From: a virus
Length of the DNA: 56,209 bases
Virus record (IMG/VR): IMGVR_UViG_3300017613_002335
Strand: one strand, 5' to 3'
Made by a program: the position numbers and the translations under genes. This document shows, piece after piece, positions 1-48,348 of the stretch. The notes beneath the pieces were generated by a model. That model saw only the letters and a list, made by a program, of their open reading frames with translations. It ran no database searches and was not told the origin of the DNA. Within the stretch, counting starts at the first letter, position 1. Each line of letters begins with the position of its first letter.

Positions 1-121
1 AGGAACCTTTGAAAATAAAGATTTGTTAAAAGGGGTTGGTGCAAGGTGGAAACAAAAACAATGGAGGTTTGATCATGACCCAACAAAAAATATCGCCAAG
101 GCACTCAGAGATAAACATGGA
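1..121. repeat. Terminal overlap copy 1 (identical to 56089-56209)
   Basis: Base-for-base identity over 121 nt. It lies inside an open reading frame. Confidence 0.97.
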
Positions 122-3100
122 ATATTACAACCAGATAGTGAAAAAACACCCGGAGATCGAGGAACAAGTGATGAAAATCTGGATGGACGATCACCCGGGG
201 TGGCCGGATCTGTTAGAAAAAAGGGAACCCACAAAATGGGAACTCTTGATGATCCTGAAAGGTATGTCCAAACAGACACAATAGCTGCGATCAACAAAGG
301 GAAAGAATTCGGAATTCCCCAAAAAGTTTTAAACGAACAAGTCGATGATATTGCAAGGATAGTAAAAGCGCATAATGAAAAGACCGGCATTTTTCTCCTT
401 GCGAATGAGGCTGGTACAGGAAAGTCATTTGTACTTGGTGGTGCTATGCAGGAATTGCAGCGCAATGGTGCAAAAAAGATACTCTATGTGACGATGAATA
501 ATGGATTGGTCAACCAACTCAAGAAAGATCTTTCCGCATTTGATATAAAAAATGTTGAATTCATCACATACGCGAAACTACGCAAAACGACTCCAGCATC
601 GTATGACGCATTGATTTTTGATGAGAGTCAAAATATTAAAAATGTGAAATCCGCTGTCGGGAAAAGAGCAAACCTTTTCATTGAACAGTCAAAATTTTCA
701 ATATTTGCTTCAGCCACACCATTTGAAAACCCAGTTGAGGCCGCATACCTTGAACCGACAAATATTTTTTTTAGTGGTCATTGGGACTGGGCAATTGACC
801 ATGGTGCATACACCAGCCAGTTCAGAAACAACAAGTTTTTGGTTTGGCCTGGTCAGGGTTCTGAACAAAACGCTATTGATGCAAGGAACTGGCTTATAGA
901 TAAAGGTGTGATGACTCAGCGAGACATGCAACTTGATCCTAAAACATCAGAAGTCAAAGTAAGTAAAGTCTCGGTTGATGCTGATTATGTGAGTATGTAT
1001 ACCAGCATAACAAATGCTTTTGATTATGCGATGGATAATCTCCCTGGTAAACAAAAGGGGCAATTGGCAGCTTATGGTGTGAACCTTAGAAAACGGATAC
1101 TTGAGGCAAGTAAACTTGACCAGGCTATCGCCGCTGCTAAATCTGCAATAAAGGAAGGCCGAAACCCAATTATTTTTGTTGAAACTAAAGCTGAACGGCG
1201 GATTGATACGGACAGTATTATTACAGCATATGATATGTGGGAACAAACACCACGGGATTTGCGAGATAAAAAACCTCCATATAGCAAAGTAACATATAAC
1301 GCAGCGAAGGCAATCCAAGATGCAGGGTTTGATGTCCTTACCTTAGAACCAACACAATCAAAAATTGTTGAAGCATTCGGTGAAGAAAATGTAGCTATAT
1401 ACACTGGCGCGGTTAGTGATATCAAGGCTCATAAGAACTTATCACAATGGCGTAAGGGGAACAAAAAGGTTTTGGTTGCAACTATGGCAAAAGGCGGCAC
1501 TGGGCTCAGTCTTCATGACACAGTCGGTGATCATCCTACAACCCAAATAAATTTAAATCTCCCATGGAAAGCAAGCGGTGTTGCCCAGGTTTCCGGTAGA
1601 TCAGCCCGATATGGGGTTGTTGGGAAACCCAAAACCGTTTGGATTTATGCCAAGAATATAGAGTTTGACAACGATTTGGCATCGCGTGTAACCCAACGCA
1701 TGAAAGACATGGGCGCGACGGTTAAGGGAGATATACCAGGGTTAGCGAAGGAGTTTGAGGATGCGTCTGGGGATGGTCGGGGTGAGAAGACAACAATCCG
1801 GGAAGCAATAGGGAAGACAAATACCAAGGTAACATCAGAAGACGGTAGGGCATATATTCTTGAAGATCTTGTTACAGGTATTTACAAAGCAGGGATGTCC
1901 CTTAAAGATTTTTCAGGAAAAGTTGCTGGTAAACTTGGTAGCGCATACAAAAAGGTAAAAGATGCTGTTGTCAAGATGTATCACGCGATCAACGCCCATC
2001 TTGATACATTTACATCTGGTTCTTCTGTTGGGGCTTTGACTTTATATCGAAAAGATGGGACAAGACCTCAATACCAAACCTTGAACCAATCCCCTGAAAA
2101 CCATTCCCCGTGGTATTCCAAAATGCGGGAAACCCTTAGTAAAAAACTCAATAATGCCCCTGCAAAAATGATGAAATCTCAAGTTAATTCATGGGCTAAA
2201 AAGGGCATGTTCAAGAAAGAAGAACTTGAATGGTCTGGATTGAATGAATGGCTTGATTCTAAAAAAGGTAAGGTCACAAAACAAGAAGCTCTTGATTATC
2301 TTGATCAGAATCAGGTTCAGGTTGAGGAAGTTGTTAAGGGTGAAAATTTGAGTGAAAGATCTTTAGCACATGAAGAAATATCACTATACGTTAACGATGA
2401 ACTTGGAGACGGTCTTTATTTTGATGATAGAGGGCCAGAAGGGTATAGTTACATAATTGAAGAAGATAAAGATGGTAACCTTGGAGAAGTAGTCCATGAA
2501 GGTTATGCAGACGAAATTGCCGAAAGCTTAAATTTAGAAATAAGAACCCCGGAAGAACAAACAAAATTCTCAGACTACCAACTCCCCGGAGGCAAAAAAT
2601 ACAAAGAGATTTTACTGACGTTGCCATCTAAATCCGGATTAAAAAAACTCACAGGCTTTAATAGCATATCAGAAGCAAGTAAAAGAGCAGAAAAATTAAA
2701 ACAAGATTACAAATCCCCCCATTGGGACGAACCAAATGTATTAGCCCATGTCCGAATGTCAGAGCGTGAGATTGATGGTAAAAAAGTCCTGCATGTTGAG
2801 GAAATCCAAAGTGACTGGCACCAAAGAGGTAGGGAGAAAGGGTATGCGTCAGGACCATTAGCTGAACTACCAAAAGATACCCGTGTCTATTCAAAAAATA
2901 TGGCGATTAATGCCAAGACAATCCGTAATAACTTCAAAAAACACTATGACACTGTAATTGATGGGTTGAGTAAAGTGTATGACGGATTGTCAGAATCCGA
3001 GCAAAAAAAGATAGAAAAACTTGATGATGCTGTTCAAGATTATTTTGATAAAGATCCAAATACTGAAAATGTAGGGGACCCAATACTATTTGTTGAATGG

Positions 3101-6100
3101 GCAAACAAAGTCAAACCAGGGACATTCTCAGACGAGTTTATAAATCCAGTTAGAAAGACTAAAAAATGGTTTGTTAAAGGCCCAGGCAAATATTCACGGG
3201 GTAGTAGAAGTTTGATAGATTCTGCCGGTGATGTCATTATAGGTAGGGGTAGGAGTGAGAATGAAGCAGTAAAAGATGCTCTTAAAAATGTAAATGACTA
3301 TAACATTTCACAATCTACACCCAACGCCCCATTCAAAAAAACATGGCCCATGCTCGCTTTTAAACGGATGGTCAGATACGCAGCGGAGAACGGGTTTGAT
3401 ACTATTGCTTGGACTCAAGGTACAGAACAGGCTGATCGGTATGATTTGAGTAAGCACATAGAGGAAATTTTATATTTCACCCCGGGACCCGGTAAAGTTA
3501 GAATGGATATTCAAACTATTGACGGGGAACGCATAAACTCTTTCGATGAACTAATGACTTTTGAAGAAGCTGAAGATGTTGTTGGTAAAGAAATTGTTCA
3601 AAAAATGCAGAATAGTGAAGGTGACAAAAAACGCCATGGGGAGAGATCTTTGTCAGGTATCGATCTCAAAGTAGGCGGCGAAGGAATGCTTGCCTTCTAT
3701 GACAAGATCCTACCCGCCGAAGTAAATAAATTCTTCAATAAAAAAGCATGGGGTAAGTCTCGGGTCGGGGAGATTGATGTTTTTACAAATGAGGCATATG
3801 AAGACTCAGATTATGCAGAATTAGATGATTTGACAAGGAAAATTGCTAAAGAAAAAGGGGAGCTTGAAACTCTACATGCTTTAGAAATAACCAAAGAAAT
3901 GAAATCCAAATCCCTGAAAGAAGGCATGCCCTTATTCCAAGGCAAGTCAATTGACAAAACTGGGGAAAATGCTAAACTATCAGGCAAAGAAAAACTAAAA
4001 GCCCTATTTCAATCAAAGAAGGATAAGAAAGATGCCCTGCGTAAAAGTAAACGGGATAAGGTATTATCTAAAACCGGAAGCATTACAAGACAAAGACTTT
4101 ATGCAGCGATTGAAAACATCGGGGATGCCTCAAAAGCAAAAATCACAATCCCTGCCAACCGAAAACAAAAAACCCTTAACAAACTTGGAAAAGCACTCGG
4201 ATTAAAAACAGTATTCTTTAAAACCTCTGATCCAGATACCAATATAACAGGATTTACCTACCCCGGCACAGATCAATTATTTATCAATCTTTCATCCGGT
4301 GTTCCAGAAATTGGTATACTCGGTCATGAAGTAACCCACCAGATAAAGAACAATCACCCTGACCTTTACGATTATCTTGTTAGCGAATTTGAAAATAATA
4401 AAAAAGATTATTTCCTTTACGCTGCTACAGAACAAACCAATCGTGAACTTGCGAACCTGCCCAAATTATCAGAAGCGGATTTGCTTGAGGAATTTATAGG
4501 CGATTTTGCAGGGGATAGCTTTCAACGTCCTGAATTCTGGTCAAAGTTAAATCAAAAATCTCCTTCAATGTCTCAGAAGTTATTCAGCGCAATTAAAAAA
4601 GTTGTGGCTAAAATCAAATCATTTATAACCAGAGCGGAACAGTATGTGGTTGATATTGATAAGGCTCAAGGTGCTATTGCTCATGCTATGAGTGAGGCTA
4701 TTAATCGTGGAAATGGCTTGAAAACTAAGCCGAATAGTGGTAGCAAGTTTTCAGTGACAGATAAAAAGGGGAAGGGCAACATATCCACTGAATCAAACCC
4801 CGTTACGCCCGCTGGTGGAGTGAAATTCAAGAAAATAAAAGACATCCCTATAGAGGACGGCCAAATTCACATTCGTTTTTCAGATAGGATAAGCGATGAT
4901 TTAGAAAGGGGTTGGTCTGGATTTATGGGGGAGAGAGCAGACAATTCCCCTGAGGGTGCAGTTCAACAAGATTTCGGGCAAAGTTTAAAATTTGAAGAAA
5001 TTCACGAAGATTTATATCATTTTTTTGGGGAAGGTGGTGAAAAGCTAGGAGAAGTCAGAAAAGACCCACATACCAAAGAATGGGTTCACGTTGACCATGA
5101 CGGTGTTGCAGGTTTTGATCTAGATGCTGGAAAATATGGTTCAACATTAAGCGATATTATAACTAATTTAGAAAAAGATTCATATGCTTCTTGGTCTTTT
5201 GGTTCATCAAGCGACAGTGGAAAAATATGGAAAGAAGATAACCCAATAACGCTTTATTCTGGTAGTATTGGCGACAATAAAGATATAAACATCATCCTCA
5301 CTGGTGCATCTAAAAAAACAAGAGATAAATTTCTATCCCCTAAACCATCCAGCACACCGGGCGCAGGTGTGCAAAGTAGTACCTCCTCCTTCCAAACAGT
5401 CAAGAACACAGCAACCAAGGCATTTAAAAAATGGAGTAAAGGGCTTAAAGATAATGGCAAATATAAAACAGGAGAACCGGTTTTATTAAAAGCATCTCAT
5501 GGAAGTTTTTCAGCAGGTGGTTTAAACAAGTTTAGTGCAGAAATGACCGGAAGTGGGATATACGGGAGTGCTGAAAATAATAGAATCGGGCATTATTTCA
5601 CAACAGATCGGTATATTGCATCTGAATATGCGACAGGTTACGATGTAGAAAATCTGAATCAAGAAGATGAATATGACGAATTTCTTCATGATAGTATTTT
5701 AGATGGAGAGATTGTTGAAGGTGCTGGGATTATAGATGCGCACATCAGGCTCGACAACCCTTATGTTATTTCTGGTAAAAAGTTTTCTAAATTTGTTGAG
5801 GGAAAAACAAAAGATGTAGATAGCCTTATCTCTGTATTGGATAATGGTGGTCATGATGGTGTCATAGTGGTCTGGTCTGACAAGTCTCCATCAGCTAAGA
5901 TATTATACAAAGAAGCTTACGATAAAAATATAAAAGTGATGCAAAAGGCGTATGAAAAAGCATCTATTAAGCAACAGAAACATTTAGAAATGGTAGATCA
6001 TATTTTCCATCAATGGATGGAAAAAGAAAGAGCAGATGAACTCCCAGATGTCGTGAGGGAAAATTTTAAGATAATAAATAAAAATGACATCTTCAAAGGG

Positions 6101-9100
6101 TTAAGTGTAGACGAGTCTGCTAAAGAATATTTATCAGGAGAAGACAAATGGATAATTGTACGTCCAGATGCAGCGAATAACGCCCAAATAAAATCCATCC
6201 ACAACAAAGGCACATGGGATAAAAACAACCCTGATATCAGGTATCAAACCTCCGAAGATCTTGGACACGATGGTTTTTCAATAGAGGACAATTCAAGCTT
6301 TGTTGAAGATTTCAAGCATAATATTGTTGATGAGCTTAGTCCGGTATCAAAGCTTTACAAAGCAATTAAAAAGGATATCCCAGAAGCCGCAGACTTTAGA
6401 TTAAAGGAACAATTAAGAGTCAGTAAAGCCAAGGGTGATATCGATAAAGCAGAAGAAAAATATTTCAAGCCAATCAAGCAACTTATTGGCCTTGGGAAAC
6501 TAACCGTGGAGTTGGTTGACGAGTTCCTTTATGCCCGTCATGCACCAGAGGCCAATGCCAGGTTAAGGTTGACCAATGCGCGGCATTACCTGAGAAAGCT
6601 GGCAGATGCACAAAGAGGGGACAGCCTCAAAAATAAGATTGCAGAAATGGACGCTGATTTTGAGTTGATGCAATTCCCAACCAATGAGATTCAGGAGAGT
6701 TATTTAGACCTCCTAGAATCTGAATTGGGTACAATTGAAGAAACCTTTGCAGCTGCCAACCAAAAATTAATGAGGGCTGAATCAAAGCTTGATTCTCCAC
6801 TATCTGAAAGCCAGATTGAAAAAGCTGAAAAATCGATAGCATATCATAAAAAGATAGTTGATAAGATCGATAGAGAATTCGATGTCAGAGACAAATGGGA
6901 AACTTTTAGCGCGAAACCTTCAGGCATGACTGACGGCCACATTGACCCAAGAGACAATGAAGCCAAAGAGATTTCTGACAAGTGGAAAGACAACAAAACC
7001 ATGGCTAAAATTGCAAAGCTGTACGACGCAATGAACGCTGAAGGTCTTGAAATATCCCATGATGCAGGCCGACTGTCAGATGAAGAATATAATGCTATCA
7101 AGGGTACTTTCGATTATTATGCTCCACTGTTCAGGGAAGGGTATGAAAAGAAACGCGCTTTTAAAGGTATCGGGGGTGGTGTCACAAATTTAGGTTCTGA
7201 TGTAAATCCCAGGGGCGGGTCCACAAAAAGAGCGGTCCATCTTCTGGCGAATGGTTTTGTGAATCATGAGAAAAAAATCATAAATGCCAAAAAAGCAGAG
7301 GTCGCATCGGCTTTTATCAAGTTCATAAAAATGAACCCGAACAAAGACTTCCTGAGTTTTGAAGAACCCAAAACAGTCGCTACATATGACGGGTCAGGTA
7401 ATATCGAAAGAAGGCCAGCGTTTTTTATTGGTAAGGACGAACCAAAGATAAAAGTTAAAACTGATGGTAAGGTTTATATAGTCTCAGCCAGTCCAAACAA
7501 TATACATGCCATGCGGATACTTGATATTATCCAGGGGAATGATCACAATTCAGGTCCGATTGTAAATGCTTTGGGTAAATTAAACCGAAGACTTGCCGCA
7601 GTAAACACCACATGGAACCCTGAATTTATTTTCTCTAACCTTGCGCGTGACCTTCAAACCGCTGCTTTTAATTTGACCGATACAGAAGTATCGAACATGA
7701 GGAAAACGATATTTAAGAATGTCCCAAAAGCTATGAAGGGTCTTTACAGTTCCATGCAGGGTGACGGCTCCCATGAGTGGGTGAGTATAGTCAAGCGATA
7801 CGAATCATCCGGGGCAAAGATAGGCTGGATCGATTACGGTAAGGATATTGAAACAAAGGCCGCGAAACTTGAAAGCCAGATAGATTTATTCCGGGAAGGA
7901 CATAAGACCAAAAAAGCGGCCGCTAAATTGGTTGAGCTTGTCGAGGACTATAACTCGATTGTTGAAAATGCGGTCAGGCTGTCCACATTTAAGGCCGGTA
8001 TTGATTCTGGTATGTCAGAGGCAAAGGCCGCAATCATGGCAAAGGGTTTGACTGTAAACTTTAACCAGAAAGGTGCTTACGGCCCTGTCATAAATAGTCT
8101 TTACCTTTTTGCAAATGCAGGCATCCAGGGATCAACCCGGATTTTTAAAACGATTAAAAATAACCCTAAGAAAATGGCTAAAATTTTGGGTGGCACCATG
8201 GGGCTGGCAACCATATTGGCCATTGCGAATAGGTCACTGGGCGGCGATGATGAAGACGATATACCATACTATGATCAGGTTGACGATTACCTGAAAGCAA
8301 GAAACATGATCTTTATGATACCCGGGACTAAGGGTAAGTATGCTAAAATACCATTGCCCTGGGGATATAATGTATTCTGGGCGTTAGGTACTGAGATTGG
8401 TGATCTTGCGATAAAAGATGATTATAGCCCACTGGATGGTGCAAGCCGAATGTTAGCAACTGCCCTGGATGCATTTAACCCGTTGCAATCTGCTACTGTC
8501 CTGCAAACTTTATCGCCAACCGTCGGAGATCCGTTTGTCCAGGTTGGTGAAAACAAAACATTTTTTGGTTCTCCATTAATGCCAGAGGGCAACCCGTTTT
8601 CACGAACACCAGAACCAGACTCTGAAAAATACTGGGGATCTGTCAGACCAACATCTAAGATGCTGGCCAAAGCTGCGAATACAATCAGCGGTGGAAATAA
8701 AGTAAAACCCGGCATGGTTGATGTGTCTCCCGAAACGCTTGATTTAGTCTGGGACACTTTTACAGGCGGGGCCGGACGATTCCTATCGGATACAGTTTCC
8801 CTGCCAATCAGGGCGTTGTCCGGGGATCTAAAGACTTCAAAAATACCTGGGCTTAGAAGAGTTTTGGGCTCTCAATCAGAATATAAAGTCACAACTGATT
8901 ATAGATCTAACATAACCTATATATATAGATTGCATGAACAGGCAAAAGAGTATCCGGCAAAGAAAAAGAAATTACGCAAGAATAAAGTGTACACGCTTTA
9001 TACATCTGCGAAAAAATATGAATCGAGAATAAAAAAACTGAACACCCTTTTAAAACGGGCAAAAACCGAAAAAGGAAAAGAGAAAATTAAAAAACGGATA

Positions 9101-9154
9101 GAAAAGTTAAAACGGGCATTCAATAAAAAGGTTATCTTACGGAGGGCTTCTTGA
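1..9154 (+). CDS. Giant virion polyvalent protein, C-terminal part (continuation of 52601..56209 across the circular junction)
   Basis: Same frame as 52601 and open from base 2. ORF-track entry 23..9154 is only the portion after an internal TTG. Motifs: NEAGTGKS (404-427), FDESQNIKN (617-643), ATMAKGGTGLSLHD (1478-1519), EEIQSDWHQRGREKGY (2798-2845), HEVTH (4325-4339), H..Y..E-like block (5470-5890), hydrophobic helices (8090-8420), Lys/Arg-rich tail (8940-9151). Confidence 0.85.
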   Translation, partial: GTFENKDLLKGVGARWKQKQWRFDHDPTKNIAKALRDKHGILQPDSEKTPGDRGTSDENLDGRSPGVAGSVRKKGTHKMGTLDDPERYVQTDTIAAINKGKEFGIPQKVLNEQVDDIARIVKAHNEKTGIFLLANEAGTGKSFVLGGAMQELQRNGAKKILYVTMNNGLVNQLKKDLSAFDIKNVEFITYAKLRKTTPASYDALIFDESQNIKNVKSAVGKRANLFIEQSKFSIFASATPFENPVEAAYLEPTNIFFSGHWDWAIDHGAYTSQFRNNKFLVWPGQGSEQNAIDARNWLIDKGVMTQRDMQLDPKTSEVKVSKVSVDADYVSMYTSITNAFDYAMDNLPGKQKGQLAAYGVNLRKRILEASKLDQAIAAAKSAIKEGRNPIIFVETKAERRIDTDSIITAYDMWEQTPRDLRDKKPPYSKVTYNAAKAIQDAGFDVLTLEPTQSKIVEAFGEENVAIYTGAVSDIKAHKNLSQWRKGNKKVLVATMAKGGTGLSLHDTVGDHPTTQINLNLPWKASGVAQVSGRSARYGVVGKPKTVWIYAKNIEFDNDLASRVTQRMKDMGATVKGDIPGLAKEFEDASGDGRGEKTTIREAIGKTNTKVTSEDGRAYILEDLVTGIYKAGMSLKDFSGKVAGKLGSAYKKVKDAVVKMYHAINAHLDTFTSGSSVGALTLYRKDGTRPQYQTLNQSPENHSPWYSKMRETLSKKLNNAPAKMMKSQVNSWAKKGMFKKEELEWSGLNEWLDSKKGKVTKQEALDYLDQNQVQVEEVVKGENLSERSLAHEEISLYVNDELGDGLYFDDRGPEGYSYIIEEDKDGNLGEVVHEGYADEIAESLNLEIRTPEEQTKFSDYQLPGGKKYKEILLTLPSKSGLKKLTGFNSISEASKRAEKLKQDYKSPHWDEPNVLAHVRMSEREIDGKKVLHVEEIQSDWHQRGREKGYASGPLAELPKDTRVYSKNMAINAKTIRNNFKKHYDTVIDGLSKVYDGLSESEQKKIEKLDDAVQDYFDKDPNTENVGDPILFVEWANKVKPGTFSDEFINPVRKTKKWFVKGPGKYSRGSRSLIDSAGDVIIGRGRSENEAVKDALKNVNDYNISQSTPNAPFKKTWPMLAFKRMVRYAAENGFDTIAWTQGTEQADRYDLSKHIEEILYFTPGPGKVRMDIQTIDGERINSFDELMTFEEAEDVVGKEIVQKMQNSEGDKKRHGERSLSGIDLKVGGEGMLAFYDKILPAEVNKFFNKKAWGKSRVGEIDVFTNEAYEDSDYAELDDLTRKIAKEKGELETLHALEITKEMKSKSLKEGMPLFQGKSIDKTGENAKLSGKEKLKALFQSKKDKKDALRKSKRDKVLSKTGSITRQRLYAAIENIGDASKAKITIPANRKQKTLNKLGKALGLKTVFFKTSDPDTNITGFTYPGTDQLFINLSSGVPEIGILGHEVTHQIKNNHPDLYDYLVSEFENNKKDYFLYAATEQTNRELANLPKLSEADLLEEFIGDFAGDSFQRPEFWSKLNQKSPSMSQKLFSAIKKVVAKIKSFITRAEQYVVDIDKAQGAIAHAMSEAINRGNGLKTKPNSGSKFSVTDKKGKGNISTESNPVTPAGGVKFKKIKDIPIEDGQIHIRFSDRISDDLERGWSGFMGERADNSPEGAVQQDFGQSLKFEEIHEDLYHFFGEGGEKLGEVRKDPHTKEWVHVDHDGVAGFDLDAGKYGSTLSDIITNLEKDSYASWSFGSSSDSGKIWKEDNPITLYSGSIGDNKDINIILTGASKKTRDKFLSPKPSSTPGAGVQSSTSSFQTVKNTATKAFKKWSKGLKDNGKYKTGEPVLLKASHGSFSAGGLNKFSAEMTGSGIYGSAENNRIGHYFTTDRYIASEYATGYDVENLNQEDEYDEFLHDSILDGEIVEGAGIIDAHIRLDNPYVISGKKFSKFVEGKTKDVDSLISVLDNGGHDGVIVVWSDKSPSAKILYKEAYDKNIKVMQKAYEKASIKQQKHLEMVDHIFHQWMEKERADELPDVVRENFKIINKNDIFKGLSVDESAKEYLSGEDKWIIVRPDAANNAQIKSIHNKGTWDKNNPDIRYQTSEDLGHDGFSIEDNSSFVEDFKHNIVDELSPVSKLYKAIKKDIPEAADFRLKEQLRVSKAKGDIDKAEEKYFKPIKQLIGLGKLTVELVDEFLYARHAPEANARLRLTNARHYLRKLADAQRGDSLKNKIAEMDADFELMQFPTNEIQESYLDLLESELGTIEETFAAANQKLMRAESKLDSPLSESQIEKAEKSIAYHKKIVDKIDREFDVRDKWETFSAKPSGMTDGHIDPRDNEAKEISDKWKDNKTMAKIAKLYDAMNAEGLEISHDAGRLSDEEYNAIKGTFDYYAPLFREGYEKKRAFKGIGGGVTNLGSDVNPRGGSTKRAVHLLANGFVNHEKKIINAKKAEVASAFIKFIKMNPNKDFLSFEEPKTVATYDGSGNIERRPAFFIGKDEPKIKVKTDGKVYIVSASPNNIHAMRILDIIQGNDHNSGPIVNALGKLNRRLAAVNTTWNPEFIFSNLARDLQTAAFNLTDTEVSNMRKTIFKNVPKAMKGLYSSMQGDGSHEWVSIVKRYESSGAKIGWIDYGKDIETKAAKLESQIDLFREGHKTKKAAAKLVELVEDYNSIVENAVRLSTFKAGIDSGMSEAKAAIMAKGLTVNFNQKGAYGPVINSLYLFANAGIQGSTRIFKTIKNNPKKMAKILGGTMGLATILAIANRSLGGDDEDDIPYYDQVDDYLKARNMIFMIPGTKGKYAKIPLPWGYNVFWALGTEIGDLAIKDDYSPLDGASRMLATALDAFNPLQSATVLQTLSPTVGDPFVQVGENKTFFGSPLMPEGNPFSRTPEPDSEKYWGSVRPTSKMLAKAANTISGGNKVKPGMVDVSPETLDLVWDTFTGGAGRFLSDTVSLPIRALSGDLKTSKIPGLRRVLGSQSEYKVTTDYRSNITYIYRLHEQAKEYPAKKKKLRKNKVYTLYTSAKKYESRIKKLNTLLKRAKTEKGKEKIKKRIEKLKRAFNKKVILRRAS

Positions 9155-14017: not shown

Positions 14018-14107
14018 AAAAGTCAGAAAAAAAAGCAAAAGCACTCAAAACACCCACTCAAAATTTTATTCCGGTTTTTTTGGAAGTCTGGAAAGGGTTG
14101 CCATTAC

Positions 14108-14159
14108 TGGTCGGGGCGGCAGGATTTGAACCTGCGACATCTTGCTCCCAAAGCAAGCG
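14108..14159 (-). other. 3' portion of a tRNA-Pro(UGG) gene (anticodon stem to CCA, no D-arm): attP-type remnant
   Basis: The reverse complement reads CTTGC-TTTGGGA-GCAAG-ATGTC-GCAGG-TTCAAAT-CCTGC-CGCCCCG-A-CCA. The sequence 5' of the anticodon stem has no D-arm or acceptor strand. Confidence 0.75.
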
Positions 14160-14262
14160 GTATAGTTTTGAAAGCCCACAACAGCCTATAATACAGGAGG
14201 TTGTTTTCTACTGAATACTATATAGTATCTCAATTATACCCAAAAGTTCTCAAATAAGTGTC

Positions 14263-14720
14263 TCAAATTTTACCACCGAATTTTTTATATAATTTATCAA
14301 GCGCAGTTACTTCTGAACTAGGTGTCGAATGTAAATATATCTCTGTTGTCTGCAATGCTTTATGACCGAGCAAACCGCCTATGGATTTTTTTGATATCTT
14401 TTCTGCATCTGCCAGATATGTTGCAACAAAATGACGGATATTATGGAATCCAAAAGCAGGATTTATTTTTGCTCTCTTACAAAGTCCTTTCATTAATTTA
14501 GGACGGTGCTTAAATCTATTGTTAGTTTTTGTATTAAAATACACATACTTTTCGTTTTTCCTATTATTCCATCGCGCTTTCAATAATCTATACAATCCTT
14601 CATTCATATGGCAAGTAATCGGTTCATACGCACCGGAACTCCTTTTTCTGGTCCACCTTGTAACTGTTTTTTTTGTAAAATTAACGTCCTGCCATTTCAA
14701 TCTTAATATTTCTGGTAGCA
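14263..14720 (-). pseudogene. Truncated second tyrosine integrase (C-terminal catalytic half only)
   Basis: The C-terminal ~150 aa of ORF 14263..14952 align with the full integrase (LRLKWQDVNF / LRLTWDDVNF; HRPKLMKGLCKRA / HRPKFMKGLCKRA; FGFHNIRH / FGFHTLRH; LLGH..LQTTEIYLH / MLGH..QKTTEIYLH). The segment carrying catalytic Arg-I and the whole N-terminal domain are missing. The upstream part of the ORF is read-through over a tRNA fragment. Confidence 0.75.
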
Positions 14721-14732
14721 CTTTTTGGCGGC
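14713..14732. repeat. 20-bp direct repeat TGGTAGCACTTTTTGGCGGC, copy 1
   Basis: Identical to 14923-14942. It sits exactly at the truncation point of the integrase remnant. Confidence 0.9.
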
Positions 14733-14829
14733 GGCTTTTATGGTAAATGTGCAAAAAACAGGGCACCGGGTAGAATGAACACCCCATATAAAGCCTATAT
14801 ACAAGGCTATTCAAAACCCGACCGTAAGT

Positions 14830-14874
14830 CTGGGGGACAAGTGGTCGCAAGTTCAAATCTTGCCGTCCCGACCA
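14830..14874 (+). other. 3' portion of a tRNA-Pro(GGG) gene: probable attP core of the intact integrase
   Basis: CTGGGGG-ACAAG-TGGTC-GCAAG-TTCAAAT-CTTGC-CGTCCCG-A-CCA. There is no complementary 5' anticodon-stem strand, D-arm or acceptor 5' strand upstream. It lies 17 nt from the integrase stop. Confidence 0.7.
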
Positions 14875-14890
14875 TTTAATACCAAGGGTT

Positions 14891-15970
14891 TCAGCGTTTC
14901 GTTGGAATCCTTTTTTTGTCTTTGGTAGCACTTTTTGGCGGCACCTTTTCATTTTTTTGTGTAAATTTTCCCGAAATTGAGTCTACTGCAACCGTGTCAG
15001 CATCCTTTAATTCATGTAAATAAATTTCTGTTGTTTTCTGGTCGGCATGGCCCAACATATTCTGAATTGTCTTATATGATATTTTGGGGTTATCATTTAA
15101 TAAAGAGGCCATTAAATGCCTGAGTGTATGGAAACCAAAATGTGGGATAATTCCAGCTCGTTTACATAAACCTTTCATGAATTTTGGTCTGTGCTGATAT
15201 CGATCATCATATCTCTTATTATAAAAAACCCAAATATCTTGTTCTCGGTGTTCCCATCTTTTCCACAATATATCATATAACTCATCATTAATTTTTACAG
15301 GCACTTCTTTCCAGGATCCGTCTTTGGTTTTTCTAGTTGTCTTTGTTAGGATCCTTTTATCAAAATTCACATCATCCCAGGTCAGTCTTAAAACCTCATC
15401 AATTCTTGCCAGAGTGTTTAATAGGACAAGCAACAAATCCCTTTCATCTGTTTTCGGGTCTGCTGCCAGCACCAGTTTAATTACATCTGATTCCTGGGGG
15501 ATAACTTTCTTTTTTGGTGTGTGTGGCATCTTCTCTATTTTCTTTATTGGGTTACGGTCAATAACTTCCAAAATATCTTTTGCATATGTAAAAAATGCTG
15601 ATAAGTCCCTTCTGTGAACATTATAATTATTATTGCTGTGCCGTGTTTCAAGATACGCCTTTATCGTTGGTGTTGTCAGTTCATCTATCTGGAAATCATT
15701 TTCCAAAAAGATAAAAAATTGCTGGTAGACATACTTTTTATATTTATATACTGCTTTAACAAATCTTCTTTCTGCATGATCGAGATATTTATTAACCGCC
15801 TCCGAATAAGCCATGCCTGTTTGGATCGGTGTTTTTACCTGTTTTCTTCTTTTTGACCTTGCTACCTCTGCGCTTCGCCGGTCTTTGTAGCCCCGACCGT
15901 AATATCCCTGACCCTGATACTGGAAACGATAACACCAATGTTTTCGGGTCTTGTCCTTCCATAATCCCAT
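14891..15970 (-). CDS. int: Tyrosine recombinase / phage integrase
   Basis: 359 aa. Catalytic pattern R (LARIDEV) ... HTLRH ... GH..QKTTEIYLH. AGGAGG 10 nt upstream of ATG 15970, with an in-frame TAA just upstream. Confidence 0.9.
   Translation of the reverse strand: MGLWKDKTRKHWCYRFQYQGQGYYGRGYKDRRSAEVARSKRRKQVKTPIQTGMAYSEAVNKYLDHAERRFVKAVYKYKKYVYQQFFIFLENDFQIDELTTPTIKAYLETRHSNNNYNVHRRDLSAFFTYAKDILEVIDRNPIKKIEKMPHTPKKKVIPQESDVIKLVLAADPKTDERDLLLVLLNTLARIDEVLRLTWDDVNFDKRILTKTTRKTKDGSWKEVPVKINDELYDILWKRWEHREQDIWVFYNKRYDDRYQHRPKFMKGLCKRAGIIPHFGFHTLRHLMASLLNDNPKISYKTIQNMLGHADQKTTEIYLHELKDADTVAVDSISGKFTQKNEKVPPKSATKDKKRIPTKR
14923..14942. repeat. 20-bp direct repeat TGGTAGCACTTTTTGGCGGC, copy 2
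   Basis: Identical to 14713-14732, 210 bp away. It lies inside the 3' end of the intact integrase gene. Confidence 0.9.
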
Positions 15971-16124
15971 ATATTATTTCCCTCCTGAATCGTAAGACTC
16001 CTAATCCTGCTGGATGAAAGCCATATAGCTTTCTTTGATGTTTGTACACTGTTTTTACGGAAATTCGCAACAGTGAAGAAACATCTTCGGGGGTTAATAA
16101 TTTATTTGGTCTGGGTCCGGTCAA
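15792..16124 (-). CDS. xis: Excisionase-like HTH protein (MerR/AlpA-type); 3' end uncertain
   Basis: The N-terminal 60 aa (LLTPEDVSSLLRISVKTVYKHQRKLYGFHPAGLGVLRFRREIIYGIMEG) fit the excisionase HTH pattern. The frame stays open 179 nt into int, so the annotated C-terminal tail may not be functional. Confidence 0.55.
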   Translation of the reverse strand: MTGPRPNKLLTPEDVSSLLRISVKTVYKHQRKLYGFHPAGLGVLRFRREIIYGIMEGQDPKTLVLSFPVSGSGILRSGLQRPAKRRGSKVKKKKTGKNTDPNRHGLFGGG

Positions 16125-25663: not shown

Positions 25664-25857
25664 AGTTTACCAGAAAAAGCAACCATTGTGCCGGAACAGT
25701 TTTTAGTGTTTCTCAATCAGGGCCACACAAGAAACTTACCTGCGAAGAGTGTGGAAAATATATCAAATTTATCTCGGCAATAGAAGAACGATATTTAATA
25801 CAGTTAAACATGATTAAAGATAACAAAAACATAGTTAATCTTGGACAAAACATTTAA
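25660..25857 (+). CDS. Small zinc-ribbon-like protein (65 aa)
   Basis: HC ... CEEC arrangement; ATGA-coupled to the helicase. Confidence 0.45.
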   Translation: MKFTRKSNHCAGTVFSVSQSGPHKKLTCEECGKYIKFISAIEERYLIQLNMIKDNKNIVNLGQNI

Positions 25858-25957
25858 AGGCAATGTTCTATAATAGGAAAACATTTAAAGGCAATGTTCT
25901 ATAATAGAAAAACATTTAAAGGCAATGTTCTATAATAGAAAAACATTTAAAGGCAAT
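25850..25957. repeat. 3.5 tandem copies of a 31-bp iteron (ACATTTAAAGGCAATGTTCTATAATAGRAAA)
   Basis: Units at 25850-25880, 25881-25911, 25912-25942, and a partial unit at 25943-25957. One G/A difference in total. Each unit contains TATAAT. The array ends 1 nt before the ATG of an RHH gene. Confidence 0.95.
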
Positions 25958-31174: not shown

Positions 31175-31489
31175 ATGTTAAACAAAAAAAAGGATAAATT
31201 ATCTATGGCTAAATACCGAAAAAAACCAGTAGTGATTGAAGCGGTCCAGTATACTGGAGATCTTTCAAGTGTTTATGACTTTGTAAAATCAACAAGAAGG
31301 GTAATTGTTGACGAGATCGATTATAGGGTAATTGTTGACGAGATCGATTATCTGGTGATTAAAACGCTTGAGGGTGATATGAGAGCAGATAAGGGGGATT
31401 GGATTATTAAGGGGATCTCTGGTGAATTCTATCCATGCAAACCGGATATCTTTAAGGCTACTTATGATGAGGTTAACGATGGAAGATAA
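31175..31489 (+). CDS. Hypothetical protein carrying an in-frame 27-bp tandem duplication
   Basis: 104-aa ORF. RVIVDEIDY is encoded twice by identical DNA. Confidence 0.6.
   Translation: MLNKKKDKLSMAKYRKKPVVIEAVQYTGDLSSVYDFVKSTRRVIVDEIDYRVIVDEIDYLVIKTLEGDMRADKGDWIIKGISGEFYPCKPDIFKATYDEVNDGR
31298..31351. repeat. Perfect 2 x 27-bp tandem duplication
   Basis: AGGGTAATTGTTGACGAGATCGATTAT at 31298-31324 and again at 31325-31351. Confidence 0.95.
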
Positions 31490-34260: not shown

Positions 34261-35537
34261 AATCCAAGGCCCAATTTCCTGAAAAATTAAAGTTCTTATT
34301 TAAGCCGCATAGGTACAAAGTTGCTTATGGTGGCCGAGGAAGTGGAAAGTCCTGGGGTTTTGCCCGGGCATTGTTGATTTTGGGAATAAAGAAAAAATTG
34401 AGAATACTCTGCGCTCGAGAAGTCCAGGATTCAATTAAGCAATCAGTACATAAACTCCTGGGTGATCAGATTGAGTTATTAAAAATCAGTAGCCGGTATC
34501 AAGTTTTAGACACTATAATTCGTGGAAAGAACGGCACTGAGATCATGTTTACTGGGTTGTCTACATTGACAGTTGATTCAATAAAATCTTTCGAGGGTGT
34601 TGATATTGTTTGGGTCGAAGAGGGGCAGGTAATCACTGAAAGATCCTGGAAAATTCTTGTACCGACTATTCGAAAAGATGATTCTGAAATTTGGGTATCA
34701 TATAACCCAGAGCTTGAGACTGATCCCACGCATGACCGATTTGTCACCAAACAGCCGCAGGATGCGGTGGTTGTTAAGATGAACTACAGCGACAATCCAT
34801 TTTTTAACACCGTAATGGAAAAAGAGCGTATTGAGTGCCAAAAGAACGATCCGAAAGGATATCCAAATATATGGGAAGGTGAATGTCGGCCAGCGGTCGA
34901 GGGCGCTATATATCATGATGGAATCCAAAAAGCCGAAAATAATAAACGTGTGTGCAATGTCCCATATGACCCATATTTAAAGGTTCATGTTGTGTTTGAT
35001 CTCGGATGGAACGATTCAATGGGGATTTCGTTAGTCCAACGGCATTATTCAGAAATCAGAATCATCGAATATATAGAAGACTCTCACAAAACGCTTGATC
35101 ACTATTCAGCCGAGTTAAAAAAGAAAAATCTCAACTGGGGCAAGGTTTGGTTGCCACATGATGGATATTCCGGAGATTATAAAACTGGGAAAACAACAGC
35201 GCAAATCATGAAAAAGTTTGGGTGGCGTGTCCCAAAAAAGGAAGAGATTGTCAAGGTCGGAGTTGAGGAGGGTATCAAAATTACGAGAATGGCATTTGGC
35301 AGGATGGTGTTTGATAAGGTTAAAGCGGCCAGGCTGGTTGAGTGTATTAAAAGATACCGAAGGCATATTAATAAACAGACTGGTGAACCTGGGGCCCCGG
35401 TGCATGATGAGTTCTCTCATGGTGCAGACAACCTGAGATATATTTCCGTAAATGCAGACAAAATGACAAATGAAGACCAAAGACCCGTTGAGATAATACA
35501 AGGTTATGGACCGATGGACGCGGCGATTAATTATTAG
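34257..35537 (+). CDS. terL: Terminase large subunit (PBSX/Terminase_3-like)
   Basis: Walker A YGGRGSGKSW, Walker B IVWVEEGQ. 426 aa. Confidence 0.85.
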   Translation: MKSKAQFPEKLKFLFKPHRYKVAYGGRGSGKSWGFARALLILGIKKKLRILCAREVQDSIKQSVHKLLGDQIELLKISSRYQVLDTIIRGKNGTEIMFTGLSTLTVDSIKSFEGVDIVWVEEGQVITERSWKILVPTIRKDDSEIWVSYNPELETDPTHDRFVTKQPQDAVVVKMNYSDNPFFNTVMEKERIECQKNDPKGYPNIWEGECRPAVEGAIYHDGIQKAENNKRVCNVPYDPYLKVHVVFDLGWNDSMGISLVQRHYSEIRIIEYIEDSHKTLDHYSAELKKKNLNWGKVWLPHDGYSGDYKTGKTTAQIMKKFGWRVPKKEEIVKVGVEEGIKITRMAFGRMVFDKVKAARLVECIKRYRRHINKQTGEPGAPVHDEFSHGADNLRYISVNADKMTNEDQRPVEIIQGYGPMDAAINY

Positions 35538-35549
35538 GGCAAAAACACT

Positions 35550-37841
35550 ATGGACGAAAGAGAAAAATTTTACAACGAGGATGAGCATCAGAGCGAGGAA
35601 GAATCTCAGAATCAAGAGAAGATGCGCCTGATTGATGCGCTTGCTGAAAATTTGCTGGCCAAACGAGATATCGCTGTTGAGTTCAGGGCCGCTTCTGGTA
35701 TCGAATCGATATGGTTAGAAGATGAAATAGCGTTCGGGGATGTTCTTAATCAACGTAACCGCACATCAATGCTTGACCACGCGACCGGTGCCGCTCCGAT
35801 TAGAAATAACAATGGCCCTGCAAGATCTGTTGTTGAAGTCAATATCATCCGGGGCAAATGCGAGACAGCCGAAGGGCGTTTTTCCGATATCCAATTGCCG
35901 GTTGACGATAAAAATTGGGGACTGAAAGTAACACCAAAGCCAGAAATCAAGACAGCAATGAAAGATGATACCCAGGCAGCAGACCTGGAAGGGAACCCGC
36001 TTTTTAATGATGATGAGACTCCGATGACGATTGCGGATGTCGCAAAGTCTGACCATGATGCAATCAAGGAAAAAATGAAGGAGATGGAAACCGAGATTGA
36101 CGACCAGCTGACCGAGTGCAGTTATAACGGTGAACAGCGGAAAGTTATCAGAGCATCATCCAGAGGTGGTACTGGCATCCTAAAAGGCCCGAACGTCGTT
36201 AAAACAGTCAAAAAGACATGGGAGCCGCAAGGCGAAGGACCGCAAACTGTCCATGTCCTGAAAACCGAAGAAGAAAACAAGCCTTCATCAAAATACGTTG
36301 ACAAATGGAACATATTCCCTGATCCGGACGTTGAAGAAGATATTCAACGAGCAGCTTACATCTGGGAACGAGACATGATCTTGCCTAGAGAGTTGCGGGC
36401 ACTAATTAATGTTGACGGATATTTCTCCGATCAGATCCTGAAAATATTCGAAGAGCAACCCATTCGGAACGCTGCCAGAATTGGCAAAAAATCAAACAAA
36501 TATACAATCCGGCAGTCAACTGTAAGCCATGGCAGCCTGTACGAGAAATGGGAATATTACGGTGATTTAAACCGTGATGACCTGGAAGCGCTTGAAGTTG
36601 ATATCAGTCATGACATGATGTCCCAAAGCTTTTCGGCTGTTGTTGTTTTCGTTAATGATCGGCCTATCAAGTGCGAGTTGAATACATTGGATACTGGTGA
36701 AATACCATATGATTTCTTCCCCTGGACACAGATACCAGGCTCACCATGGGGTTTGGGCCTTGCTCAGATGCTCAAGTGGTGGCAGCGGATAATTATCGGG
36801 TCATTCCGCGCACTAATGGACAATCAATCTGATTCATCCGGTGCCAATGTTGTTATCGGTCCCGGGATTTATCCGGCAGATGGTAAATGGGAGTTGCGCG
36901 GCAAAAAGATTTGGCGGCTGAATGATGAACTCGATGCTGATGTAAGGAAAGCTTTTTCTCAATTCCAGATTGGCAACAACCAGGAACAGATACAGGCGGT
37001 TATTGAACTGGCATTGAGGTTTATTGACATGGAAACGTCATTGCCGGCCATGTTTCAGGGTGAGCATGAAAGCGCACCGGACACACTGGGTGCCACAAAT
37101 ATAATGGTCGATGCTAATAACGTTGCATTGCGAACCAGGGTCAAACTCTATGATGATTTGGTGACTCGACCGCACTTGACCCGATATTACAATTGGAACA
37201 TGCAGTACAACAAAAACCCGGAGATCAAAGGCGATTATAAGGTTGATGCCCGGGGTACGTCTGTATTGCTGGAGAAGGATCAGAAAGCACAGACACTGAT
37301 GCAGGTCATGGCCGCTAAACAGGATCCGGATGTCAATCTGCTTGTTGACTGGGAAAAGGCCACAAAGCAGATGTTTACGTCAATGAGGCTTGATATTCTT
37401 AAATCTCCTGAAGATTTGAAAAAAGCCAAAGAAGCCATGGCACAGCAGCCGGCACCGATGGACCCGAAACTTGAGATCGCAAAGATGAAGCTTGATGGTG
37501 ACATGGCCAAAGCTGAAATGGTTAATAACGCTGACATGGCAGAAATCCAGGCAAAGAGCAATTCAACCCTTGAGGATAGGCAAATAAGGTCAGCGGACGC
37601 AGCGGCCGACAGGGAACACGAACGTACTATGAAACAGATGGACCTCCAGATAAAGATGATGGAGTTCGCATCAAGAGAGGGAATTTCCCTTGAGCAGATT
37701 AAGGCGAAGCTGGCCGGGGATACAATGAAACTAAAGACTCAGGTTGCACTTGCTGGTCCCGATAAAAAAGGGCCGCAGGTTGCCACGCCGGTCGTTGAAC
37801 CAGAGGGCCGGGCACCTGACGGAATGGCTTATCAAGCATGA
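35550..37841 (+). CDS. Portal protein
   Basis: 763-aa ORF directly after terL, with an acidic/helical C-terminus. Call is based on position and size. Confidence 0.7.
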   Translation: MDEREKFYNEDEHQSEEESQNQEKMRLIDALAENLLAKRDIAVEFRAASGIESIWLEDEIAFGDVLNQRNRTSMLDHATGAAPIRNNNGPARSVVEVNIIRGKCETAEGRFSDIQLPVDDKNWGLKVTPKPEIKTAMKDDTQAADLEGNPLFNDDETPMTIADVAKSDHDAIKEKMKEMETEIDDQLTECSYNGEQRKVIRASSRGGTGILKGPNVVKTVKKTWEPQGEGPQTVHVLKTEEENKPSSKYVDKWNIFPDPDVEEDIQRAAYIWERDMILPRELRALINVDGYFSDQILKIFEEQPIRNAARIGKKSNKYTIRQSTVSHGSLYEKWEYYGDLNRDDLEALEVDISHDMMSQSFSAVVVFVNDRPIKCELNTLDTGEIPYDFFPWTQIPGSPWGLGLAQMLKWWQRIIIGSFRALMDNQSDSSGANVVIGPGIYPADGKWELRGKKIWRLNDELDADVRKAFSQFQIGNNQEQIQAVIELALRFIDMETSLPAMFQGEHESAPDTLGATNIMVDANNVALRTRVKLYDDLVTRPHLTRYYNWNMQYNKNPEIKGDYKVDARGTSVLLEKDQKAQTLMQVMAAKQDPDVNLLVDWEKATKQMFTSMRLDILKSPEDLKKAKEAMAQQPAPMDPKLEIAKMKLDGDMAKAEMVNNADMAEIQAKSNSTLEDRQIRSADAAADREHERTMKQMDLQIKMMEFASREGISLEQIKAKLAGDTMKLKTQVALAGPDKKGPQVATPVVEPEGRAPDGMAYQA

Positions 37842-38464
37842 TATTTGAAAGACAAAATAGAGACAAAGCACAGAAACCCGCACCGGAGCAATCCGCTGCA
37901 ATAAAACCCGCCAGTGATGCCGGGGGAGGATGTGAGAAAATGACACAACCAAGTGATGTGTATGAAATGGAAAGAAAGATCGAACATTTAACAAAGGATA
38001 ATGAACGTTTGATTGAAGTTGTCACTAAACAGAGAGAACTTCTTGAGAGCGATGCCGTTGTCATCAAACTTTTGAAAGAGCGAAAAAAGGAAGGTGAAAC
38101 ACAGACCTTTCGCAGGCTGAAACCTTTTAGCGCGATAAGTCCACAGGAAGAGATCACGGAACTGAAAAAAGAAGCAGCTGGAAACCAACGGCTACTGAAG
38201 CATCATGAAAGAATAATATACAAACAAAGCGATGCTATCAAAAATCATAAAAAAACAATTGAACAATTGAGGGGTGAAGTTGATAGATTAGAAGAAATTG
38301 ATGTGGGAAACTTCAAATTTCTCCAGAGAAACCTCCTTGATGGCCATCGGTGGACATGCAAAGAACTCCACGACAAATTTACTTCACCGATTCATCTACT
38401 TTCCGAACGAGTAGATGCCCTGGAAGAACAATTTACAAACATTAACTTTGGGGATGTAATATGA
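37838..38464 (+). CDS. Coiled-coil head-module protein
   Basis: 208-aa ORF. An alternative start is ATG 37940, preceded by GGGGGAGGA. Confidence 0.55.
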   Translation: MIFERQNRDKAQKPAPEQSAAIKPASDAGGGCEKMTQPSDVYEMERKIEHLTKDNERLIEVVTKQRELLESDAVVIKLLKERKKEGETQTFRRLKPFSAISPQEEITELKKEAAGNQRLLKHHERIIYKQSDAIKNHKKTIEQLRGEVDRLEEIDVGNFKFLQRNLLDGHRWTCKELHDKFTSPIHLLSERVDALEEQFTNINFGDVI

Positions 38465-38736
38465 AATTCGCACCCAGAAAATTTTATTTGCACGACCAGG
38501 GCAGGGCAATTGCTGTTTTAGGGACCGTTAAAACTTTTGCATGGGGTTTGATGCTGGTTATCGAGGAAACGGACATGACCGGCCATTCTATCAGCTGCGT
38601 GACCGTTAATCATTCTGATGCAGACACCTGGACTGAGATAGGTGAGACTGAGTTCATCCAGCACTTCAACACGAAAAAAGACCCTAATGCAGCGGTTGAA
38701 GAGGTCACGGAGAATGATGGGAGAGTGTTAAATTGA
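38461..38736 (+). CDS. Hypothetical protein (91 aa)
   Basis: ATGA-coupled ORF. Confidence 0.55.
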   Translation: MKFAPRKFYLHDQGRAIAVLGTVKTFAWGLMLVIEETDMTGHSISCVTVNHSDADTWTEIGETEFIQHFNTKKDPNAAVEEVTENDGRVLN

Positions 38737-39053
38737 TTCGGAAAATAAGAGAAGCATTCCATATGGGCGGTACTGAAGCGGAACAACCCGAGCAGCAGGA
38801 AGCATTTGAAGCGACATTACCGGACAATGAAGACAGCCATGGCACTGGTGAGTTGAACGTCAATTCAAGCACCTGGGCGTTCGTTGCGGCCTGGGCAGAT
38901 GAGCGGATTGAAAAATGCAGAACTCAAAATGATAATCCGACATTATCCGAGAGGGATACTGCCAATTTGCGAGGTCAGATAAAAACGCTAAAGAGTTTAA
39001 AAGGCCTGCCAGACGCAGACAGTACAATTATAAGGGGGATATTGAGCAGATAA
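38733..39053 (+). CDS. Hypothetical protein (106 aa)
   Basis: Coupled ORF. Confidence 0.55.
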   Translation: MIRKIREAFHMGGTEAEQPEQQEAFEATLPDNEDSHGTGELNVNSSTWAFVAAWADERIEKCRTQNDNPTLSERDTANLRGQIKTLKSLKGLPDADSTIIRGILSR

Positions 39054-39117
39054 TTTAACCAACAATTAGGGTGAAGCAGGAAGTCCGGCCAGACTGATAG
39101 CTGACGCAAGATTTAAG

Positions 39118-39167
39118 AAGGGGGCAATACGGTGTCCGTATACATCGTATTCGCCCTCTTTTTTTAT
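39118..39167 (+). terminator. Rho-independent terminator/attenuator upstream of scaffold and capsid genes
   Basis: Stem GAAGGGGGCAATACG / CGTATTCGCCCTCTT with one bulge, followed by T7. It shares the 16-mer GGGGCAATACGGTGTC with the terminator at 9503. Confidence 0.7.
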
Positions 39168-39248
39168 GCCCTAACCCAAATATCAAACCGAGCCGGGAAA
39201 CCGCCTCAAGCTCACCCGCAATACCCGGGTGAAGGAGAAAAACCAAAG

Positions 39249-40145: not shown

Positions 40146-40162
40146 AAATGAGGTAATAAAAG

Positions 40163-41197: not shown

Positions 41198-41300
41198 TAC
41201 ATGAGGTTTTAAACCGCCTCTAAAAATAATGTGGGGGTAAGTCTTTTTATCCCCACGCCACAAAGACCTCTTGAGTAAGCAGGGGCAGGAGTAAAAAGAT

Positions 41301-42335: not shown

Positions 42336-42383
42336 ACATATTTTTTTTAATTTTTTTTAATTCAAAAGATACGAGGTAAACAA

Positions 42384-42845: not shown

Positions 42846-42908
42846 GGGGATTTTAATCAACCTAAGTAATCAGGGGGGTGAAACTCCCCCCTCCGGAGAT
42901 TTAAACAC

Positions 42909-43364: not shown

Positions 43365-43367
43365 CCA

Positions 43368-44033: not shown

Positions 44034-44034
44034 A

Positions 44035-46601: not shown

Positions 46602-46608
46602 GTGATAC

Positions 46609-48339: not shown

Positions 48340-48348
48340 GGGGATGCG

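Follow-up and report, generated by a model that had tools for sequence, protein, structure and literature searches.

A tRNA-Pro integration module in a Desulfobacteraceae phage, next to the probable relic of the module that it replaced

The IMG/VR record IMGVR_UViG_3300017613_002335 is the genome of a temperate phage of Desulfobacteraceae (sulfate reducers). We analyzed the full record, 56,209 nucleotides (nt), as one window with positions counted from the first base. The window carries 2 phage attachment sites (attP) whose cores copy the 3' parts of 2 different proline transfer RNA (tRNA-Pro) genes; to the left of them lies a lysis module (an M15 peptidase gene and a DUF1353 gene), and to the right lie genes for an integrase and a helix-turn-helix (HTH) protein. 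The GGG-type site, attP-A, adjoins the intact integrase gene int; the UGG-type site, attP-B, adjoins int', the C-terminal part of a paralogous integrase. We consider it about 80% probable that this locus combines the integration module of a temperate phage with the relic of a module that was replaced. The window begins and ends with the same perfect 121-bp direct repeat (1-121 = 56089-56209), and it is thus an assembly that closes into a circle of 56,088 bp and a complete phage genome. ARAGORN detected no complete tRNA gene anywhere in the window. The tRNA pieces are accordingly attP cores in a free genome, rather than the junctions of a prophage. For comparison, 198 loci were retrieved, and these are designated by L-numbers (L001 etc.); the features of the window are listed in Table 1.

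To find the host target, a host scan was performed with one degenerate pattern that covered both tRNA fragments, applied to one genome each for 185,579 species and reporting exact pattern matches only. A preliminary description of the locus had marked a 45-nt 3' part of tRNA-Pro(GGG) at 14830-14874. This fragment is real: its sequence recurs without mismatch in the 3' part of tRNA-Pro(GGG) at 45 genomic loci, all of them labelled Desulfobacterales. The matches include Desulfobacula, Desulfotignum, Desulfobacter, Desulfobacterium, the isolate Desulfospira joergensenii DSM 10085, and complete Desulfobacteraceae chromosomes. Host identity always continues for 2 nt on the 5' side of the 45-mer, so that the common core is 47 nt. 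Rfam gave no tRNA match for the GGG fragment. Directly after the core lies a terminator-like hairpin that overlaps the last codons of int on the opposite strand, and comparable hairpins are present 3' of the tRNA at host attL junctions. Integrated relatives were seen in hosts as attL (full tRNA plus integrase gene) or attR (core copy) at L154, L006, L106/L147, L178/L107, and L191/L162, and by analogy with them the phage would be expected to use attP-A. The host check proposed earlier thus returned full tRNA-Pro genes with identical 3' ends, but junctions for relatives only.

The 20-bp repeat that brackets the GGG fragment occurs exactly twice in the window, at 14713-14732 and 14923-14942, and two matches were obtained in 0 of 100 shuffles. 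It lengthens to 27 nt at 25/27 identity and is composed of two tandem 13-bp units (TGGTAGCAC.. / TGGCGGCAC..). The left copy (R-left) lies on the 5' side of the core, and the right copy (R-right) sits inside the 3' coding tail of int, where L006, L009, L011, and L012 have homologous tandem CCGCAACCAAAA-type pairs in their own integrase genes. In the host scan, 4 GGG cores lay outside a full tRNA; for 3 of these a full tRNA was present on the same contig, and the fourth (L111) had its partner attL (L190) among the scan matches too. These loci are integrated elements with attL and attR. Elements at this tRNA possess a motif pair of their own at both ends, namely GGGTTGCGG twice in L106/L147, TGGGTCACGA twice in L178/L107, and TGGGTCATAAA twice in L191/L162. 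In attL of the element in BB40, a metagenome-assembled genome (MAG), the pairs have their start points at +48 and +61 nt relative to the CCA, and in attR the pairs stop 107 and 95 nt short of the core; the window has +48/+61 and 108/95. Pairs at +48/+61 were found in L106, L147, and L107, and a Desulfotignum attL (L154), next to an integrase with a 71%-identical C-terminus, has its pair at +50/+62. The pair-core-pair layout is likewise present in free attP sites of more distant family members (L013, L014, L018, L036, L041, and L054). When the longest word common to both flanks was assessed by shuffling, a word as long was found in 0/500 shuffles for the window and in no more than 4/500 for 4 of the family free attP sites.

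The repeat could instead be a scar of the replacement, either a duplication or the microhomology of a join, that has no function of its own. In favor of a scar, one copy lies exactly at the int' breakpoint, and the copies are unusually long and 20/20 identical. However, relatives with no int' relic have their own pairs at the same nucleotide offsets in both arms, and the two 13-bp units of the repeat resemble the pairs in L006, L009, L054, and others. The arm repeats of L054 are equally long (approximately 26 bp) and near-identical, and joining at microhomology would yield a single copy rather than a pair separated by 210 bp. We judge a scar to be very unlikely. Since elements integrated at the same tRNA have their own motif pairs at matching offsets, the R copies are best read, on sequence grounds, as the P and P' arm-type integrase-binding site pairs of a presumably active attP-A and not as a recombination scar. 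An 11-nt motif between R-left and the core, GGTAGAATGAA, is common to the P arm of the BB40 attR (L147) and is possibly an accessory-factor site. As a separate observation, L149, a Desulfobacterium MAG contig, has a single TGGTAGCAC unit at approximately 160-240, about 55 nt after tRNA-Pro(GGG), and this unit may be the trace of an element with arm specificity like that of the window.

The integrase encoded by int matched PF00589 almost end to end (E=2.8e-25, profile positions 11-169), and its Arg189, His281, Arg284, His308, and Tyr317 are invariant in a 26-sequence family alignment. Residues 1 to approximately 60 are strongly conserved within that alignment. We found 180 homologs of int, of which those 60-70% identical converge on tRNA genes; relatives 62-71% identical converge on complete tRNA-Pro(GGG) genes in L006, L027, L032, L056, and L154. 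In a survey of the tRNA targets of the family (36 metagenomic and 7 other loci), integrases usually converged on complete tRNA genes for Asp(GTC), Pro(GGG), Pro(UGG), or Val(CAC). Different Pro isoacceptors are used by relatives 61-63% identical to int, which argues that retargeting among tRNAs is routine in this family. The switch between isoacceptor sites that had been described for the phage therefore holds as a record, but it is an event of a routine kind among these integrases, with their Asp, Pro(GGG), Pro(UGG), and Val targets.

The second tRNA piece, described earlier as a 3' part of tRNA-Pro(UGG), is also real. The 52-mer is identical to tRNA-Pro(UGG) at 29 genomic loci, with no extension on the 5' side. 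These loci belong mostly to Syntrophia, unclassified 'Deltaproteobacteria', and Omnitrophota, together with two Desulfobacula-labelled contigs of 38% G+C (guanine plus cytosine) content (L155 and L184). No genome in the host scan matched both the GGG and the UGG fragments. A host shift read from the two cores was not relied on; it is only a hint, because conservation of the UGG sequence spans phyla and the scan was limited to exact matches. Against the Rfam tRNA model, the UGG piece gave a sub-threshold partial match at 14117-14180(-), 28.1 bits versus a gathering score of 29, of which the 5' part is not real. A weak match to YrlA (Y RNA-like) at 14065-14163(-), 23 bits versus a gathering score of 69, was rejected as chance driven by the T-arm and acceptor part of the core. 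Neither tRNA fragment is thus a complete tRNA, as had been expected.

The pattern TTTGAG-N7-TTTGAG occurs 2 times in the 56 kb (0.04 expected), once on each side of the UGG core. The P-arm units, which overlap the stop codon of int', lie 102, 89, and 69 nt 5' of the core, and the resulting offsets of 102/89 nt 5' and +45/+58 nt 3' are nearly those of attP-A. With TTTGAG arm pairs on both sides at this spacing, attP-B is the structurally complete attP of a paralogous system. It is inverted relative to attP-A, and its integrase lies on the anticodon side instead of the CCA side. The flanks of the two attP regions are homologous over 65 nt, extending past the tRNA part. No integrated element with TTTGAG arms was found at the UGG hosts.

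The integrase half next to attP-B was examined by BLASTP, Pfam, and alignment with relatives. int' and int aligned over int residues 190-339 with 45% identity, and, as described earlier, the homology of int' starts at the repeat. In the open reading frame (ORF) 14263-14952, integrase homology starts at Glu81 (nt 14712) and runs to the stop at 14263, and the match of the ORF to PF00589 begins only at profile position 40. The fragment retains the catalytic His-x-x-Arg, His, and Tyr and has neither Arg-I nor any N-terminal domain; on the 5' side of the Glu81 GAA codon, relatives read Ala-Arg-Ile/Val-Asp (the Arg-I box), and the window has the repeat instead. Alignment with relatives puts the breakpoint at 14712/14713 +/- 2 nt, where it abuts the outermost arm-type unit, the outer edge of attP-A. 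Lacking Arg-I, the core-binding domain, and the arm-binding domain, the fragment is predicted to be one that cannot catalyze recombination. Residues 1-80 of the ORF have chance-level integrase similarity only. An extension of the homology to 14859 by tblastn was rejected as chance, since it adds approximately 14% identity and crosses the tRNA-derived 'DLNLRP' stretch. No other integrase fragment was found in the window by tblastn with 16 family queries, and with no N-terminal int' half elsewhere in the genome, that half was lost and not displaced. Insertion of an element into int' was rejected on the same finding.

Table 1. Features of the attP-A and attP-B region of the window, ordered by position
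Feature	Position	Strand	Basis or offset
attP-B P' arm, TTTGAG-N7-TTTGAG	14044-14062	-	starts at +45 and +58 nt from the CCA end
attP-B core, 52-nt tRNA-Pro(UGG) 3' part, anticodon stem to CCA	14108-14159	-	exact host matches
attP-B P arm, TTTGAG-N7-TTTGAG (14249-14267) and a third unit, ATTGAG (14229-14234)	14229-14267	-	
int' relic, last 149 codons and stop of a paralogous tyrosine integrase	14263-14712	-	BLASTP, Pfam, alignments of relatives
R-left, predicted attP-A P arm, tandem 13-bp units TGGTAGCAC / TGGCGGCGG	14713-14739	+	108 and 95 nt 5' of the GGG core
Conserved P-arm motif GGTAGAATGAA, between R-left and core	14769-14779	+	common to the BB40 attR P arm (L147)
attP-A core, 47-nt identity with tRNA-Pro(GGG) 3' part, anticodon stem to CCA	14828-14874	+	exact host matches
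Terminator-like hairpin, 13 pairs and T-tract, directly 3' of CCA	14884-14919	+	overlaps the last int codons
int, intact 359-aa tyrosine integrase	14891-15970	-	PF00589
R-right, predicted attP-A P' arm, two tandem 13-bp units	14923-14949	+	+48 and +61 after CCA
Xis-like HTH gene, upstream of int and overlapping it	15792-16124	-	PF12728 HTH_17

The frame of int' stays open for 80 more codons, 14713-14952 (-), a stretch that spans the two R copies as well as the GGG core and reaches back to an ATG at 14952, and gene callers report a 222-229-aa 'integrase' that reads through the attP site. Every one of the closest int' relatives (57-76% identity) is short, and the representative of its cluster is a 213-aa remnant in L001. 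A word-index search with the 149-aa int' was not exhaustive, missing even the int of the window itself (45% identical); an exhaustive phmmer search of 1.84 billion representatives returned no full-length relative above approximately 53% identity. The relatives in L002 (121-801) and L003 (1330-2019) begin at 'NNYNAHRKD', at about residue 110, with unrelated genes upstream. As in the window, both adjoin an attP-type 3' fragment of tRNA-Pro(UGG); arm repeats can be recognized in the window and in L002. The L001 relative (6001-6642) is truncated close to Arg-I and has a complete host tRNA-Pro(UGG) gene next to it, and the L005 relative (325-1333) has two frameshifts at the same AT-rich, NNNYN-coding AATAATAATTATAAT stretch. 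The oddities of int' could reflect rarity together with a recent event, or selection could be keeping such copies.

If such copies are kept, attP-B could be a standby site served by Int' in trans from a resident element, or the fragment could encode a protein, consisting of the catalytic domain only, that interferes with rival elements of the Int' type. A structurally complete attP-B, an int' frame that is intact and open, and the recurrence of catalytic-domain-only copies of the subclade beside arm-bearing att sites (L002 and L003) are consistent with such a use. However, the copy in the window has no Arg-I and would not catalyze recombination, promoter or start-codon evidence was not found, and the recurrence may be ascertainment bias or simple rarity. 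We find a useful relic of this kind improbable. A broader view, in which the Pro(UGG) relic is not junk but a selected interference factor, a standby attP, or a site whose NNNYN-coding stretch is a hot spot for domain-swap recombination, is likewise improbable.

The junction of int' and attP-A could also be an assembly chimera of two phage variants with different integration modules, as metagenome assemblies can join strains at shared repeats. However, only 20-27 bp are common at the junction, less than the overlap that the assembler must have used to judge from the 121-bp terminal repeat, and the products of int and int' are both recorded on 3 database contigs, the longest of 56,256 bp. We consider a chimera very improbable.

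The order of events was addressed with homologs of the DUF1353 gene, which lies directly left of attP-B, and these led to sister phages. The DUF1353 genes of L192 and L194 are 59-60% identical to that of the window, and L192 has 64% nucleotide identity over 515 bp. In both sisters the same ACTCAAAA repeats, the reverse complement of the TTTGAG-type repeats of the attP-B P' arm, come next after the lysis module, and then a tRNA-Pro 3' end in the same orientation; both contigs end inside the att core. L195 is an integrated sister, in which the DUF1353 gene is followed by 60 bp, a complete host tRNA-Pro(CGG), and host metabolic genes. Integration through a site located where attP-B lies would be expected to give this attL. 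The DNA of L002 is 71% identical to window 14108-14712, with homology that ends exactly at the R-left boundary (14712); in L002, pairs of the TTTGAGA type flank the Pro(UGG)-type core, and past the att site comes a gene with 57% identity to the final gene of L194. Since the sisters have an attP-B-type site right after the same lysis module, the UGG module is most likely ancestral at this position and the GGG int/xis/attP cassette the newcomer.

The reverse order, in which the GGG module is ancestral and int' with attP-B was gained later from another element or a decayed island, would fit the decapitated integrase remnants that are common beside host tRNA genes (L001, L147, and L107) and an int' subclade seen almost only as damaged copies. 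In contrast, the site that follows the same lysis gene in the sisters is of attP-B type and not GGG type, and one sister has integrated through it. Moreover, attP-B has both arms, the attP form, whereas a chromosomal relic would be expected in attL or attR form, and a relic of imprecise excision would sit outside the core and not inside the P arm. We consider the reverse order unlikely. The replacement of a UGG module by a GGG module, leaving a fossil, is supported by the truncation of int', the layout of L192, L194, and L195, and the end of homology in L002, and the reading of the 20-mers as arm-type sites by the same offsets in integrated relatives and the layout of free attP sites. These two readings had been posed as alternatives in the preliminary description; each is supported, but they are not exclusive and hold together. 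Its view of the repeat as the mark of a recombination breakpoint has to be dropped, as the repeat neither marks nor results from the event, and the breakpoint merely abuts a predicted functional attP.

Several points weigh against replacement of an older module by an active attP-A module. A lysogen of this very phage was absent among the 198 retrieved loci. No Pfam arm-binding family matched the N-terminus of the integrase, the sole match being a weak one to Int_N (residues 103-148, E=0.09). The Xis-like ORF matched PF12728 HTH_17 with E=3.9e-5 and 24.2 bits, under the cut-off of 27. The relic int' is still an unbroken frame of 149 codons with 80 further open codons (0.9% of shuffles), which is unexpected for a truly old fossil. 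The direction of replacement rests on 3-4 moderately related sister contigs (57-64% identity), and a full-length int' was seen in none of L192 and L194, which end in the core, or L002, in which int' runs from about residue 110.

From the sequence anatomy, the exact host matches, the geometry that recurs identically in integrated relatives, and the layout of the sisters, we infer how the proteins would bind and act and in which direction, and by what mechanism, the replacement would have occurred. The N-terminal domain of Int would bind the arm pairs and its C-terminal domains the core, with strand exchange within the 47-bp identity. Integration would leave an intact tRNA, with its 3' half and terminator phage-derived and int adjoining (attL), and the other arm and a core copy would go to the far end (attR). 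The ancestor would have used a UGG-type site right after the lysis module. Recombination, or insertion then deletion, would have delivered a GGG-type int/xis/attP cassette, with loss of the 5' half of the older int as far as the boundary of the incoming P arm, which was still required. A breakpoint that abuts the outermost arm unit is expected if everything but the still-needed P arm could be lost. Either one illegitimate exchange or an insertion followed by a deletion would fit. Read in this manner, the locus is an ordinary though unusually legible integration-module replacement with a textbook arm-core-arm attP.

In mycobacteriophages, pairs of arm-type repeats flank attP cores derived from tRNA or transfer-messenger RNA (tmRNA) (PMC3203893). 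As in the window, the L5, Giles, and Cluster K systems have short direct-repeat pairs that flank a core of approximately 45-50 bp identical to the 3' part of a host tRNA (PMC3203893). Systems of the lambda/L5 type also resemble the window in having int adjacent and a terminator between the core and one arm pair, and their related integrases use different arm motifs, as in the family of the window. The window differs from them in that its units are pairs with a 13-bp period, one pair lies inside the coding tail of int, and the hosts are uncultivated Desulfobacteraceae. Within Cluster K, Pixie and the K1 phages differ in int/attP, and TM4 lost int/attP and kept xis (PMC3203893). Close relatives there, as here, differ in int/attP and target, and remains of the lysogeny module persist after deletion; unlike Cluster K, the window has the old and new modules side by side, with the old attP complete and half of the old integrase in frame.

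The called ORF 14263-14952 spans the attP core, so that integration would split it, as with the 'suicidal' integrase of the SSV type, in which attP lies inside the int ORF. This resemblance was rejected as superficial, since the 80 residues on the 5' side have no integrase homology and the real int is separate and complete.

Relic arm pairs and integrase remnants beside tRNA-Pro are also left by tandem accretion on chromosomes. The Desulfobacteraceae MAGs BB40 (L147, approximately 2690-2830) and OB14 (L107, approximately 2965-3030) share the same relic pair, TGGTGTCG twice at +48/+61, downstream of the attR core, and BB40 (L147) also has a 60-aa C-terminal integrase stub at tRNA-Pro(GGG). The shared relic pair indicates tandem accretion at tRNA-Pro(GGG). 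Unlike such chromosomal relics, the relic in the window lies in a free phage genome, is inverted, belongs to another tRNA-Pro isoacceptor, and has the attP form.

For phages that infect uncultivated marine sulfate reducers (Desulfobacula, Desulfotignum, and Desulfobacter), the locus gives a fully annotated attP that includes the core, both arm pairs, and the terminator, along with int and xis. The annotation of attP-A is useful for host assignment and for the calling of prophage boundaries, and potentially as an integration tool. The presence of old and new modules in one genome points to retargeting between tRNA isoacceptors by cassette exchange and not by gradual change, and current understanding of site-specific recombination is unchanged. 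Gene callers will yield a spurious 'integrase' across such an attP.

The Xis-like ORF listed in Table 1 had no PHROG match, and L005 has a similar HTH gene at the equivalent position. In both genomes this ORF overlaps the start of the integrase gene by approximately 170-180 nt in a different frame (15792-16124/14891-15970 in the window and 180-494/325-717 in L005). When the 3-kb locus was searched against GenBank phages, only phage tRNA-Pro genes were returned, and searches of IMG/VR with int, the DUF1353 protein, and an 821-aa tail-region protein singly found no close relative. Elsewhere in the window, an ORF of 3043 aa (23-9154) begins within the terminal overlap, and a 51-nt repeat with 90% identity pairs 4752-4802 with 55023-55073. 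Iteron-like tandem repeats are present at 25847-25957 (31 bp, approximately 3.5 copies) and 31298-31351 (27 bp, 2 copies). The G+C content climbs from approximately 0.39 to 0.44-0.48 over approximately 35000-53000, the presumed structural-gene block, which suggests a mosaic origin. Coding repeats with a 33-nt period lie at 51660-51967, within the ORF 51375-52601.

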